From positions 1 to 27,093 of IMG/VR virus record IMGVR_UViG_3300027806_000816: 27,093 bases of DNA. One strand, 5' to 3'. The stretch's first letter is position 1, and every line of letters starts with the position of its first letter. The notes under the pieces are model-generated. The model searched no databases and was not told the DNA's origin. It saw only the letters and a list, made by a program, of their open reading frames with translations. This stretch comes from a virus. Taxonomy: Duplodnaviria; Caudoviricetes. Below are positions 21,749 to 26,173 of the stretch, one piece after another. Position numbers and translations under genes: made by a program.

Positions 21749-21990
21749 CCTTGATTCTTTTTTTGTTTTGTTCGCTGAATACTTATATATCCAAAGTAGA
21801 TTGGTATTAATCCTATATACCATATTGGAATACCTATCGAACAGAACCAAATACCCTGAATTATAGATAGGATAGATAATAGATAAATAATAAAAGATGG
21901 AAAATTTAATCTAGATAATAAATATGCTAGTGGTCCAATAAGTAGCGTTACTAATATTATTAATGAAACTATGAACGCTAAACTAGCCAC
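21745..21990 (-). CDS. Small multi-TM membrane protein
   Basis: Two to three hydrophobic segments, basic C-terminus, GTG start overlapping the upstream TAG. Confidence 0.75.
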   Translation of the reverse strand: MASLAFIVSLIILVTLLIGPLAYLLSRLNFPSFIIYLLSILSIIQGIWFCSIGIPIWYIGLIPIYFGYISIQRTKQKKNQG

Positions 21991-22322
21991 TAACTTTCAT
22001 CCTCACGACTACTCCATTCATCATCTTGATAATCATCGTCATTATTTTCGTAATTAAAATTACGCTCATCATAAGGAGTCCAATCTTCTTCATCGTCTAA
22101 CTCTTCTTCATTTTCGTCCACTTCTTCGATAAAAACAGTTATATTATTCAGCATTTCAAATACTTTTTCTAGAGTCTCGTCAATTCTAGATAGTTTATAT
22201 TCTATAGTCTTGATTTGCTTACTAAGATCAGATATCTCTTTAGACAAACCCTTATCAAGATTATGTAGTTCTTTATTACTTTTCATTACTTCTTTCATTA
22301 TACTATCAATGTCTCTTGACAT
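21990..22322 (-). CDS. Coiled-coil protein with acidic tail
   Basis: Heptad pattern followed by a D/E-rich tail; SD AGGAG. Confidence 0.8.
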   Translation of the reverse strand: MSRDIDSIMKEVMKSNKELHNLDKGLSKEISDLSKQIKTIEYKLSRIDETLEKVFEMLNNITVFIEEVDENEEELDDEEDWTPYDERNFNYENNDDDYQDDEWSSREDES

Positions 22323-23154: not shown

Positions 23155-23497
23155 GGTTTTCTTTTTTATAAATAGGCACTTCTGTTTCGGTTATTTTATT
23201 CCCAGTCAGATGTTCTACTAAAGATATCGCCTGATGTAAATACTCAAAAGATGCGATAAACTTAGAGGATTCCTTAAAATCAATTTTTAATGATCCATAA
23301 ACTAGGTAGTACGGCTCTCCAATCCTCTCATCATTAAAATAATAATCTTCTATATTAGAGACTCTTTCTATAAAAGAACCTCCATTATAATCATTTAAAT
23401 CATGTACGGTTTCTATAATATAGTGCCTAAAGTGCGATCTAATATTTCCATCATTAGAACAAAAACCATAAAAGAATCTATTTGCGTTAGTTGTCAT
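23144..23497 (-). CDS. Hypothetical protein
   Basis: Overlaps both neighbours. Confidence 0.75.
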   Translation of the reverse strand: MTTNANRFFYGFCSNDGNIRSHFRHYIIETVHDLNDYNGGSFIERVSNIEDYYFNDERIGEPYYLVYGSLKIDFKESSKFIASFEYLHQAISLVEHLTGNKITETEVPIYKKENHED

Positions 23498-23759
23498 TTT
23501 TCCACAACTTGTATGAATTTTTATCGTAATAAATAGGCATAACCGTATTTGGATCTACATGAGGATTATGATATAATCTTAGATCATATGGATCACCATT
23601 TTGGTTGATTCTGGCCCAGCCTAAAATCTCAAAACGATCTGTTTTAGATCGTAGTTTTATTAGTTCGTCTTTCGCATTAAGAATATCAAAAGTTGATGGA
23701 ATTAAACCTTGTTCACAACAATTGAGGATGTAGTCAAGAGGATTAGCGTCTTTATTCAT
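23487..23759 (-). CDS. Hypothetical protein
   Basis: ATGA coupling to the upstream gene. Confidence 0.75.
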   Translation of the reverse strand: MNKDANPLDYILNCCEQGLIPSTFDILNAKDELIKLRSKTDRFEILGWARINQNGDPYDLRLYHNPHVDPNTVMPIYYDKNSYKLWKNDN

Positions 23760-23974
23760 GCAAAACCTATCCTAGTTTTTTCATCGGTTGTCATAACTAG
23801 TTGAGATGGGACAAAAGTATCTCTTGTATAAGATCGTCCACTCCACCATCCAACCTGATATGTTATAGAATTATTATGAGATATATTTATGCCAATAATA
23901 GTACCAACAACATCATCTTCTAGTTTAACCTTAGTTCCTATAGCATTTAGTTCGATTGTTTCTGGCTTTTTCAT
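23756..23974 (-). CDS. Small beta-rich (SH3-like) hypothetical protein ending RIGFA
   Basis: IGTKVKL..VGTIIGI..YQVGWW; SD AAGGA. Confidence 0.78.
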   Translation of the reverse strand: MKKPETIELNAIGTKVKLEDDVVGTIIGINISHNNSITYQVGWWSGRSYTRDTFVPSQLVMTTDEKTRIGFA

Positions 23975-24025
23975 AATATTTCCTTTGATTTCAAATGTAA
24001 CTGATAATTACCGTGGAAAAATAAG

Positions 24026-24098
24026 TAGGAGCGGTGAGAATCGAACTCACACTTGAAGGATTTTAAGTCCTTTGTCTCTGCCGTTGGACTACGCTCCC
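24026..24098 (-). tRNA. trnL: tRNA-Leu(UAA), 73 nt, short variable loop, CCA not encoded
   Basis: GGGAGCG/CGCTCCT acceptor, D-loop CAACGGCAG, AAGGA-CTTAAAA-TCCTT anticodon arm, GTGAG-TTCGATT-CTCAC T-arm, discriminator A. Confidence 0.93.
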
Positions 24099-24099
24099 G

Positions 24100-24191
24100 T
24101 ATAAGACAACCAACTACAATAGTCTATTTAACTGAGGTTGATTATGCGTTTGTGGCCTAGTCATTTAAACTAATGTAGTCAGTTGCTTATA
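24100..24191 (-). ncRNA. 92-nt imperfect hairpin RNA with an anti-RBS loop
   Basis: Helices TATAAG/CTTATA, CAACTGACTACA/TGTAGTTGGTTG, TAGTTTA/TAGACTA, TGACT/AGTTA, AGG/CCT; 4 G:U pairs fix the strand; 18-nt loop. Confidence 0.8.
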
Positions 24192-24208
24192 GTTTTAAAT
24201 CATGGCTT

Positions 24209-24490
24209 TCAGCCGTTAGCATGAGCCTTCAAACGACGCACAAACTCTGCCATAGCCTCACTATTATCAACAGTCTTTGTTGGCTTGGCACGTTCCATAC
24301 TTGGAAGTTCCTCACCCTTCTTAGCAAGAGCGGCCTTTGTACGAGCATAACGAGCCATTGTGGTGGCTACCTTTTGGCCCGTCTTAGCAGCAACTTCCGC
24401 ATAAGTCTTAGACGAAAAAACTGCCTCTAGAAACTGTTCATCAGAACAACGAACACGCTTTTGCTTTTCAGCAACATTAACATCAGTCAT
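24209..24490 (-). CDS. 93-aa putative HTH DNA-binding protein (start ATG 24490)
   Basis: SD GGAGG-N6-ATG; SDEQFLEAVFSSKTYAEVAAKTGQKVATT is HTH-like; GC-richer codons than its neighbours. Confidence 0.8.
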   Translation of the reverse strand: MTDVNVAEKQKRVRCSDEQFLEAVFSSKTYAEVAAKTGQKVATTMARYARTKAALAKKGEELPSMERAKPTKTVDNSEAMAEFVRRLKAHANG

Positions 24491-24516
24491 AATCAACCTC
24501 CAAAATCATTCCAATT

Positions 24517-24561
24517 TACAACTCAGTCCCAATCACGCGACTGGCTCAATCCTGTGTTGTA
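24517..24561 (-). promoter_or_regulatory. Structured 5' leader of the HTH gene
   Basis: TACAAC/GTTGTA, CAG/CTG and CCAGTC-GCGT-GATTGG helices starting at the predicted TSS. Confidence 0.6.
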
Positions 24562-24566
24562 TCCTA

Positions 24567-24594
24567 ATTGTACTCTGTTGTATCGTCTTGTCAA
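24567..24594 (-). promoter_or_regulatory. sigma70 promoter TTGACA-N16-TACAAT
   Basis: Near-consensus; 15 bp identical to the promoter at 26159-26173. Confidence 0.8.
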
Positions 24595-24613
24595 CACCCC
24601 AAACTTGAATTTT

Positions 24614-24781
24614 TTATGCTGCTACTAGATCGTTTTTTTGTTCTAGATATTCAACAATCTTTTTTAAACTTTTATTTTCTGTCTCTAAAACCTTGATAAT
24701 ATCTTGTGCTTGCTCTAGTGCTTTATGTAGATGGTAGACTTTGTTGCTCAGTTCATCTGCCACATAATTTTTCATTATCAT
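24614..24781 (-). CDS. 55-aa coiled-coil protein ending DLVAA
   Basis: Not in the track; SD GGAGG; MIMKNYVADELSNKVYHLHKALEQAQDIIKVLETENKSLKKIVEYLEQKNDLVAA. Confidence 0.82.
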   Translation of the reverse strand: MIMKNYVADELSNKVYHLHKALEQAQDIIKVLETENKSLKKIVEYLEQKNDLVAA

Positions 24782-24807
24782 TTTAGCCTCCATTAGTTTT
24801 TGAGACT

Positions 24808-24821
24808 ATATTAGATACACT
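24808..24821 (-). promoter_or_regulatory. Putative phage-sigma promoter motif AGTGTATCTAATAT
   Basis: Overlaps a gene end just upstream of the 55-aa gene; matches RGTGTA-N0-2-TAATAT. Confidence 0.4.
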
Positions 24822-25110
24822 TATTAAGGAACTCTTTAAGATTTTGTATCTGATTTTTTTCTAAAACTATTTGGTCACTATATGATCTATTATGGCGAAT
24901 AACTTGCCAGATATATCGTAACTTTTGACGCCAACTCATTTTATTTCTAAAAGAAACACTATGCTCATAAATAGCCAAATCCATTAGGCCAATTTCTTTA
25001 TCATATTCTAAAACCAAAACTTCACTTTTGCAACCACAAAGTTCAAAATGAATATTATTTTTTAGATCGTTTTGTTTTGGATTTTTCCCGAATCCCAAAA
25101 ATCCTTTCAT
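24811..25110 (-). CDS. Hypothetical phage protein
   Basis: CGCKSEVL, SWRQKLRYIW; SD GGAG. Confidence 0.75.
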   Translation of the reverse strand: MKGFLGFGKNPKQNDLKNNIHFELCGCKSEVLVLEYDKEIGLMDLAIYEHSVSFRNKMSWRQKLRYIWQVIRHNRSYSDQIVLEKNQIQNLKEFLNKCI

Positions 25111-25183
25111 AGTTTTTCTCCCATGTTTTATAGTCTACGTTTTTTGGTCTACGTTTAGACCCTTTACCATTTTCGCTCATCAT
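25055..25183 (-). CDS. 42-aa basic phage peptide (GKGSKRRP...YERIF type)
   Basis: Not in the track: MMSENGKGSKRRPKNVDYKTWEKNYERIFGIREKSKTKRSKK; SD GAGG; overlaps the next gene by 56 nt. Confidence 0.75.
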   Translation of the reverse strand: MMSENGKGSKRRPKNVDYKTWEKNYERIFGIREKSKTKRSKK

Positions 25184-25227
25184 TATTCCTCAAGAATAAA
25201 ACTCTAGTATCGATTATACTCTTTCTT
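25183..25227 (-). pseudogene. Relic 3' end of the glycosylase gene
   Basis: Reads K-K-E-Y-N-R-Y-*-S-F-I-L-E-E-* versus the intact end NKSDSRYWSYVFEE*. Confidence 0.65.
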
Positions 25228-25384
25228 AGTTGTTTATAAAAAATGTGTTACCAACAATAAATCCTAGTATAAACCCCATCGACAATATTACTAAAAACGG
25301 GTCGCGTGACCAAAAACAAGAACCCATAAAAATAGCAGTAGCTATATATAATATTATCAGTTTGTGTTTTTCTTGTTTAGTCAT
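25226..25384 (-). CDS. 52-aa two-TM membrane protein
   Basis: Not in the track: MTKQEKHKLIILYIATAIFMGSCFWSRDPFLVILSMGFILGFIVGNTFFINN. Confidence 0.72.
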   Translation of the reverse strand: MTKQEKHKLIILYIATAIFMGSCFWSRDPFLVILSMGFILGFIVGNTFFINN

Positions 25385-25414
25385 GCCAATCCCTTTGACT
25401 CATTTAAAAATACT

Positions 25415-26116
25415 TTATTCTTCAAATACATATGACCAATAACGAGAATCACTTTTGTTTTGTTTGGCGTCCCAAAAAATAGATCGTGCAATATACGCAG
25501 GAACACCTATTTTGCCACAATTAACACTCCAGTGTCTTTCCATTTTCTTATACAAATCAAGACCCTTTTTGGATTGATACGTTAATGTTTTCATACCATA
25601 AAGTTCCAGCATATGAGTATCTCCGCAAAAAACTCTACACTCATTAGGATGGGACTGCTCAAGAGCAAAAGACACTTTAGCAGTTCCTAGACCAGATATA
25701 TTATTCACAATCCAGTCTCTTTTCTTAACATGATATTTTTTAGTTGTCAGATAAAAGTTTTTAGGATTGGCCCAAAACTTATCTTTGAAATCCCAAATAA
25801 ATTTTGTGCGGTTATTGTAAAGTCCGCATCCACTATTCTTGATCTTTTCTCTTAGAAGTTCTTTATTGTCTAGCCAGTCACCGAAATTCTTAATGGCATT
25901 ATATCCAGCAACATTAGATTTCCATGTTGTATGGACACTCATAAAACTAAATAGATAACGACGAAAAATTTCGTCATTGTTATTTGGACGAATACTCTCC
26001 CAATATTCCTTATAACTAACAACTTTATCTTTAGGAAAACTCTTAAAGAAAAGATCTGCTTTAGTGGTATCCATAGTAGTATTCTGAACCGGAATAACTG
26101 TGTTATCAACAATCAT
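25415..26116 (-). CDS. HhH-GPD DNA glycosylase, OGG2-like (start ATG 26116)
   Basis: LFSFMS, GLYNNRTKFI, RDWIVNNISGLGTAKVSFAL ~ OGG2 REWLVKNVKGIGYKEASHFL, GDTHML ~ LDRHIL; SD GGAGG. Confidence 0.78.
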   Translation of the reverse strand: MIVDNTVIPVQNTTMDTTKADLFFKSFPKDKVVSYKEYWESIRPNNNDEIFRRYLFSFMSVHTTWKSNVAGYNAIKNFGDWLDNKELLREKIKNSGCGLYNNRTKFIWDFKDKFWANPKNFYLTTKKYHVKKRDWIVNNISGLGTAKVSFALEQSHPNECRVFCGDTHMLELYGMKTLTYQSKKGLDLYKKMERHWSVNCGKIGVPAYIARSIFWDAKQNKSDSRYWSYVFEE

Positions 26117-26144
26117 AGTTTCCTCCAAATGTGACGATACTACG

Positions 26145-26173
26145 ATTCTACCTTGCTAGTATCGTCTTGTCAA
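26145..26173 (-). promoter_or_regulatory. sigma70 promoter TTGACA-N17-TAGAAT with overlapping 10-bp inverted repeat
   Basis: Boxes seen directly; IR gacgatacta 26133-26142 / tagtatcgtc 26157-26166. Confidence 0.82.

Follow-up and report, generated by a model that had tools for sequence, protein, structure and literature searches.

A 3'-UTR hairpin complementary to the ribosome-binding site of its own gene in freshwater phages

The locus and its relatives

The stretch of DNA analysed here (the window; 27,093 nucleotides) is an AT-rich 27-kb virus record whose minus strand carries phage-type genes. The initial annotation had placed one predicted transcript on this strand, running from a sigma70 promoter through a structured leader, a 93-aa gene, a 92-nt hairpin and one further nucleotide to a tRNA-Leu, and all of these parts are present in the order given. 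The features are as follows.

24614..24793, minus strand: upstream 59-aa coiled-coil-like ORF, on the same RNA contigs as the cassette
24567..24594, minus strand: sigma70-type promoter, TTGACA-16-TACAAT, with 11 of 12 consensus matches (best of 10 matches in 23400-25400)
24517..24561, minus strand: 5' leader stem-loop, beginning at the predicted transcription start (about 24560)
24488..24501, minus strand: ribosome-binding site (RBS), consisting of GGAGG, the spacer UUGAUU and AUG, the target of the hairpin (from the ORF list and the inverted-repeat search)
24209..24490, minus strand: 93-aa ORF for a basic, hydrophilic, all-helical protein (from the ORF list)
24100..24191, minus strand: long 3'-UTR hairpin with a covarying lower stem, internal loops, a short upper helix and an apical loop
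24156..24159, minus strand: internal partner of the anti-Shine-Dalgarno (anti-SD) motif, an SD mimic that half-cages CCUC (UAGG in the window, GAGG in most relatives)
24134..24146, minus strand: anti-RBS CAUAAUCAACCUC, a 9-nt loop toehold plus the anti-SD CCUC
24025..24098, minus strand: tRNA-Leu(UAA), 74 nt, with a short variable arm and no encoded CCA, separated from the hairpin by one base (24099)

Relatives lie on IMG/VR contigs of up to about 240 kb, and the promoter, leader stem-loop, 93-aa gene, long hairpin and tRNA-Leu are kept in freshwater phages; the stretch is also present in freshwater metatranscriptome runs. A total of 363 sequences were examined (362 loci and the window, chance pattern matches included), 247 of which contained the complete gene with flanks and yielded 117 distinct loci: 83 with long hairpins of the window's type ("A/other", here type A), 20 with long hairpins of a sister type (type B), and 14 short-spacer loci with a short hairpin or none. 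An enlarged set of 152 distinct loci was used for new variants and for a swap test only, its class counts being unreliable (four short-spacer loci fall into class A, and G:U-rich lower-stem helices were often picked). Genome-collection matches comprised five contigs in unrelated metagenome bins and indicated no host, and a distant homologue (P0122) used as a query returned only four loci, all unrelated.

The promoter spacer holds a conserved (G/C)(A/C)CGATA element, and 93 of the 117 distinct loci fit a promoter pattern that includes it. The element follows the -35 box; a phage or host factor, perhaps the 93-aa protein itself, might bind there. Two promoters of the window have TTGACAAGACGATA in common (24581-24594 and 26160-26173), and behind the second CGATA promoter lies the gene (25415-26128) for a 237-aa protein with an 8-oxoguanine glycosylase HhH domain (Pfam PF22175, above the cut-off). 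Downstream of the cassette promoter, the inner 6-bp helix of the leader is conserved, with two-sided changes at five of six pairs (19 leaders).

The upstream 59-aa ORF adjoins the gene in 45 of 116 relatives. Single contigs in all four of the four metatranscriptome runs span the RBS, the gene and the loop and reach this ORF, with the reservation that a contig is not a transcript and that such contigs cannot show strand, ends or level. These contigs begin at 24783-24871, ahead of the sigma70 promoter and at the 59-aa ORF or shortly before it, a hint that transcription may also start further upstream. Their other ends fall at 24137 (the border of loop and stem, in two runs of different studies), 24111 and 24035, and do not constitute evidence of processing. 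A GTGTAT-N4-TATA motif at 24807-24820 was not significant (20 of 100 shuffles), and its looser form was found in only 5 of the 45 relatives having the 59-aa ORF. Contigs in all four RNA runs also cover the gene (21990-22322) for a 110-aa coiled-coil protein with a very acidic tail.

For the 93-aa protein, 669 homologues were detected at E<=0.001, and the nearest Atlas clusters are viral and unnamed. Structure prediction (pLDDT 79.7) gave a three-helix HTH-like N-terminal bundle followed by a C-terminal helix, with helices predicted at residues 17-26, 30-37 and 41-58; the N-terminal half is nearly invariant among relatives. The label of HTH gene given in the initial annotation is no more than suggested by this model and by the weak family and structure matches, which are mostly to HTH proteins, while a significant match is lacking: none reaches E<=0.001, the Pfam match to Sigma70_r4_2 (E=0.013) is below the cut-off, and Foldseek returned no match for the model at E<=0.001. 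It is plausible that the protein is a transcription regulator. A type I toxin was rejected, as the protein is soluble and basic (GRAVY -0.66, best 19-residue window 0.29, 18 K+R, no membrane segment) and not a small hydrophobic membrane peptide. Within the gene family, TTA accounts for only 12 of 493 Leu codons.

The hairpin and its match to the ribosome-binding site

The 92-nt hairpin is predicted to fold at -33 kcal/mol (z=-6.9), and 0 of 200 shuffles were as stable. In the predicted fold, the nine nucleotides CAUAAUCAA lie within an 18-nt apical loop, CCU of the anti-SD is paired with AGG while the last C is bulged, and the stem includes four G:U pairs, so that the toehold, the 3-bp helix with its bulge and the G:U pairs are recovered as originally described. 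GAGG is found in the 5' arm of 71 of the 79 matching loci and is absent in 8, and the helix that it forms with CCUC is 92.8% paired. An alignment of the lower stem was made from 38 of the 64 distinct type-A hairpins; over its 17 bp, 15 pairs show two-sided changes, far above slid controls, and 93.9% of cells are paired. This covariation marks the lower stem as a genuine RNA structure. The spacer between the stop codon and the stem is A/U-rich and conserved.

Covariance-model searches assigned neither the hairpin nor the leader to an Rfam family, the sole Rfam match in the window being the tRNA; matches in five relatives were to tRNA and a group I intron (E<=0.1). A pattern scan for the hairpin gave 122 listed matches, 18 of which lie in the hairpin, all behind this gene, and the other 104 are chance matches without the gene; no hairpin in another gene context was seen among the matches listed.

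The 13-mer at 24134-24146 and its exact complement at 24488-24500, reported in the initial annotation as covering the SD, spacer and AUG of the gene, form the single perfect inverted repeat in 23900-24700. The chance of such a 13-mer in a 110-nt spacer is about 4e-6, and in the same complement test on the 43 minus-strand ORFs of the window, the next best reaches 9 nt. After opening costs, the net binding energy is -13.1 kcal/mol to the gene's own RBS versus -4.2 kcal/mol for the best of 42 other ORF starts; across 22 type-A loci, net binding of the intact hairpin is weak (> -3 kcal/mol) in five (L049, L060, L246, L277 and L286). The 10-mer GAGGTTGATT occurs nine times in four genomes (718 kb), seven of these at this RBS or hairpin, and its reversed control occurs five times. 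As a shared RBS class offering targets in trans, the 8-mer is not enriched in the window (17 matches versus 14.3 expected), nor is the 10-mer in the four long genomes. From the contrast in binding energy and the placement of the 10-mer, we infer that the anti-RBS element is private to its gene.

Conservation and co-variation of the pairing

At least nine contiguous Watson-Crick pairs to the gene's own -22..+3 region are present in 73 of 83 type-A loci, 0 of 20 type-B loci and 0 of 14 short-spacer loci. When each locus was compared with its shuffles, no more than 2 of 100 did as well or better in 75 of 83 type-A versus 2 of 20 type-B loci. The match is missing in 38 of the 117 distinct loci with the gene present, and four type-A loci (L245, L286, L290 and L277) are without a good match. 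The match is thus optional, being absent from the sister hairpin type (20 loci) and from the 14 short-spacer loci. Retention of the stem with loss of the complementarity, which the initial annotation had named as the observation that would speak against its reading, is seen in the 20 sister-hairpin loci and not in the main clade, where the match is kept and co-varies with the RBS.

Within type A, GAGG:CCUC is unchanged in 34 of 34 distinct RBS/loop combinations (80 of the 83 loci anchored), and as the internal GAGG of the hairpin is missing in 8 of 79 loci, CCUC is maintained by something apart from the hairpin itself. Around this core, four lineages show concerted changes of RBS and loop. Two of these, L035 and L246, carry the matched substitutions GAGGUUUAUU/AAUAAACCUC (G-to-U with C-to-A) and belong to separate branches with different stems and leaders; in the other two, L363 and L388, a base has been lost from both RBS and loop. 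In four more lineages (L055, L217, L261 and L264), the register has moved upstream to UUGGAGG/CCUCCAA, and three of the four carry a quite different stem. One subclade has its longest perfect helix just upstream of the SD, then a one-base bulge and 7-8 pairs over GAGGUUGA, and L379 has a partial match; L363, L388 and L379 come from the 152-locus set.

Swapping hairpins among nine variant lineages, which were hand-picked for RBS variation with L275 used in place of its sister L277, showed that the summed cognate duplex energy beats random pairings (p=7e-5); the cognate hairpin ranks first in only two of the nine RBS rows. The RBS of L275/L277 changed without compensation in the loop, and L286/L290 lost the match. 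Mismatches between RBS and loop include more G:U (9) than A:C (3), yet there are 30 of other kinds. A test for co-evolution of presence and absence on the tree had no power, as there were only two supported independent pairs. GAGGTTGATT is present at the RBS of 71 of 83 type-A, 9 of 20 type-B and 0 of 14 short-spacer loci, a distribution that would be expected if the loop constrains the RBS spacer, with the proviso that the sequences are related. The median SD strength is -13.0 kcal/mol in long-hairpin versus -8.7 kcal/mol in short-spacer loci. The conservation of the match in the main clade, together with its co-variation with the RBS, makes it very likely that the RBS-loop pairing is under selection.

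Type-B hairpins were considered as a shifted form directed against the leader. Several of them, including L203, L212 and L080, have a 9-nt match between the hairpin's upper 3' arm and the leader (-28..-20), and in L080/L234 a match of 10-11 bp that includes G:U pairs still extends over the spacer and AUG; the anti-leader candidate was rejected, since binding of the hairpin to its own leader was no better than shuffles in 20 of 20 loci. These matches may represent a decaying or shifted form, and overall they do not rise above shuffles. The RBS can also be fitted to the 3' arm of the lower stem over 11 bp rich in G:U pairs, a pairing that is weak and buried and was likewise discounted. Different combinations of leader type, gene lineage, hairpin type and tRNA type occur across loci (L230, L273, L315, L359 and L222), suggesting frequent recombination within the cassette.

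Folding behaviour and candidate functions

Pairing of the RBS with the loop of a closed hairpin is a pseudoknot and lies outside the folding programs used, so that the following probabilities refer to nested folds only. For window transcripts ending 0-22 nt beyond the anti-RBS, the probability of RBS:anti-RBS pairing is 0.99; it drops to 0.11 at 27 nt and reaches 0 when the whole stem is present. With the coding region held open, the nested models gave 0-2.3 leader pairs with the intact hairpin in 26 of 26 loci, and 10-25 leader pairs in 25 of 26 loci once 20 nt of the 3' arm had been removed. When the nicked hairpins were compared with shuffles, no more than 1 of 25 shuffles did as well in just 45 of 83 type-A loci, and type-B loci gained pairs too, yet 0 of 20 beat their shuffles; the gain on removing the 3' arm is partly compositional. 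In these models, the completed hairpin looks like a cage with a toehold rather than an automatic off switch. This would invert the timer originally proposed, in which the gene is silenced once its hairpin has been transcribed, and indicates processing as a possible gate. After stem closure, as modelled, fold-back needs either a loop-kissing pseudoknot or a cut in the stem.

Taking the sequence evidence together, we consider it fairly probable that the hairpin is a cis-acting 3'-UTR brake on the strong RBS of its own early phage gene, resembling icaR and hbs; such a brake is a tuner and not an essential switch. The mRNA would begin with a stem-loop and a very strong RBS and end in the long hairpin, with its 3' end presumably set by tRNA processing or, where the tRNA is missing, by a U-rich tail. 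Ribosomes loading during transcription could then give an early burst of protein. The hairpin apex, complementary to the SD-spacer-AUG region and co-evolving with it, would offer the loop as a toehold, from which the RBS could displace the hairpin's own GAGG mimic; with SD and start codon covered, re-initiation would fall and decay would probably be faster. According to the computed folds, an intact lower stem would limit the pairing to a loop-kissing pseudoknot, and full fold-back would require that the stem has not yet closed or that its 3' arm has been nicked or trimmed. More speculatively, processing might set the strength of the brake.

A stronger form of the same idea, which we regard as possible though doubtful, is a processing-gated pulse generator: the finished hairpin and its SD mimic would cage the anti-RBS, so that the mRNA can still be translated, until the cut that matures the tRNA and a subsequent nicking or trimming of the 3' arm release it, and the mRNA would then shut its own SD and AUG. 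If this were true, an early phage regulator would be timed by host RNA processing and tied to delivery of tRNA-Leu(UAA), as a natural toehold strand-displacement switch repeatedly re-tuned in evolution.

Partly compatible with the cis brake is the much less probable explanation that the hairpin is mainly a processing or stabilising signal, whether an RNase III-type stem, a protector of the 3' end after tRNA removal or a partial terminator, with the anti-RBS as a small-effect addition or as serving mRNA decay or end-to-end closure rather than repression. The long covarying stem with its conserved core is present in all long-hairpin loci, match or not, its base lies 0-6 nt before the tRNA in 97 loci, and a short hairpin before the tRNA is often kept even in outgroup loci. 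RNase III substrates comprise about two helical turns, with coaxial stacks allowed (PMC1540722; background on the enzyme in PMC3074117, PMC7049713, PMC8708148 and PMC3867540), and in hbs a 14-nt 5'/3' pairing modulates cleavage and leaves the SD uncovered (PMC5737220). This explanation leaves the co-change of RBS and loop, and the constant coverage of the SD by the duplex, unaccounted for.

It is less likely again that the hairpin is excised as a stable small RNA repressing the gene's mRNA in trans, as delayed negative feedback, its 3' end coming from RNase P and its 5' end from another nuclease, or its apex being freed by a double RNase III cut. The accessible loop toehold and the favourable bimolecular binding (net -13.1 kcal/mol) would suit such an RNA, as would the stem's nearness to the tRNA (0-6 nt), and the conserved A/U-rich spacer could be a cut site. 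Against it, no separate conserved promoter was found: a candidate internal promoter for hairpin and tRNA (24169-24141, 9/12) was rejected, being at background level with a -10 box not kept in many relatives. In addition, the RNA contigs, which cannot show ends, run unbroken through gene and loop, and the gene itself is the sole target found among the ORF starts of the window and in the four genomes. Furthermore, no tRNA lies within 170 nt behind 5 of the 79 matching hairpins, which have a U-rich tract instead; the tRNA is usual behind a matching hairpin but not required, and a place in a pre-tRNA leader is not obligate.

An improbable reading treats the loop as a general anti-SD decoy, mimicking the 16S rRNA 3' end for many phage or host mRNAs or for a protein, with the match to its own RBS arising because loop and RBS both resemble the SD consensus. 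The strong SDs of the long-hairpin loci would fit, as would AUCAACCUC, which we take to resemble the 16S tail. The loop nevertheless copies the gene's private spacer, including an extra U that departs from the 16S tail, it follows the substitutions and deletions of that spacer, and GAGGTTGATT lies at this RBS or hairpin in seven of its nine occurrences (reversed control, five). Scarcely credible is a role of the 13-bp inverted repeat as DNA, as paired operators for the HTH-like protein (looping) or as the ends of an invertible segment: a perfect repeat does flank a gene for a basic HTH-like protein, but shifted registers, bulges and changes compatible with G:U suit pairing of RNA and not recognition by a protein, the two copies change in step while the protein is nearly invariant in its N-terminal half, and a stem arm stands in front of the gene in 0 of 247 loci.

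For the cis brake, the nearest phage precedent is probably, by analogy, T7 gene 1.1/1.2 with the RNase III site R1.3. Saito and Richardson are said to have described in 1981 a 3'-end hairpin of a T7 early mRNA that is complementary to an upstream RBS on the same mRNA, and one versus two RNase III cuts at R1.3 reportedly decides fold-back and the block of translation. The phage cassette likewise has a long double-stranded 3' stem with internal loops (the 17-bp covarying stem plus stacked helices); it differs in being monocistronic and followed by a tRNA, and in that its evidence is co-variation rather than genetics, with cleavage only hypothesised. In the type I toxin mRNAs hok/Sok and aapA/IsoA, a 3' element pairs with the 5' region and 3' processing alters the fold. 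The initial annotation drew its fold-back precedent from these mRNAs, and 3'-to-5' pairing over the RBS is indeed known there and shared by the phage cassette, but it also occurs beyond toxins (icaR, hbs and probably T7). The analogy does not extend to the protein, which is soluble and basic, nor to the gene, which exists without the element in 38 of 117 loci; processing in the phage cassette would switch expression off rather than on. No antisense antitoxin gene was seen, promoter matches on the plus strand being only at background (the contigs carry no strand).

Among mRNAs with 3'-5' pairing, hok is also mentioned in the paper on Staphylococcus aureus icaR, in which an anti-SD motif of the 3'-UTR pairs with the gene's own SD region, blocking the initiation complex and producing a substrate for RNase III, and the choice between cis and trans is left open (PMC3868564). 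The phage cassette shares with icaR a 3'-UTR complement of its own SD region and a small regulator gene (here a plausible regulator). Unlike icaR as presented there, the phage motif occupies the tip of a long covarying hairpin that also contains an SD mimic, is complementary to SD, spacer and AUG, has a tRNA behind it, and is known here from sequence alone. The Bacillus subtilis hbs mRNA has a 14-nt interaction of 5'- and 3'-UTR overlapping an RNase Y site in the leader (PMC5737220). Both hbs, which encodes a DNA-binding protein, and the phage cassette have perfect 13-14-nt long-range pairing across a gene for a small basic protein, but the phage pairing covers SD and AUG, whereas that of hbs covers the RNase Y site. 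B. subtilis reporters further indicate that a distal anti-SD at 500 nt pairs with the RBS and lowers translation and mRNA level (PMC12697547); unlike that element, which is synthetic and counter-selected in coding sequence, the phage element is natural, conserved and structured.

Few bacterial mRNAs are documented to have natural control of the RBS from the 3'-UTR, and most of these cases come from single species. More than 100 natural variants are supplied by the widespread freshwater phage family, among them matched mutations, shifts of register and losses, and they serve both as evolutionary evidence for the pairing and as a ready allelic series for reporter tests. Should cleavage of the stem gate the pairing, tRNA maturation would be linked to the timing of an early phage regulator, and the arrangement would offer a compact natural template for synthetic circuits with delayed shut-off. 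The literature searched, with supplements and subscription journals outside it, yielded no description of the phage element; catalogues of structured phage RNAs may contain it.

The tRNA of the relatives alternates among short-arm, long-arm and intron-bearing versions. ARAGORN placed an anticodon-loop intron of roughly 200 nt in 42 of the 117 distinct loci, the window copy being intron-free, and Rfam identified the intron as group I, above the cut-off in L011 (1916-2104) and just below it in L264 (1292-1481). In 10 of the 14 short-spacer loci, tRNA-Leu(CAA) takes the place of tRNA-Leu(UAA).
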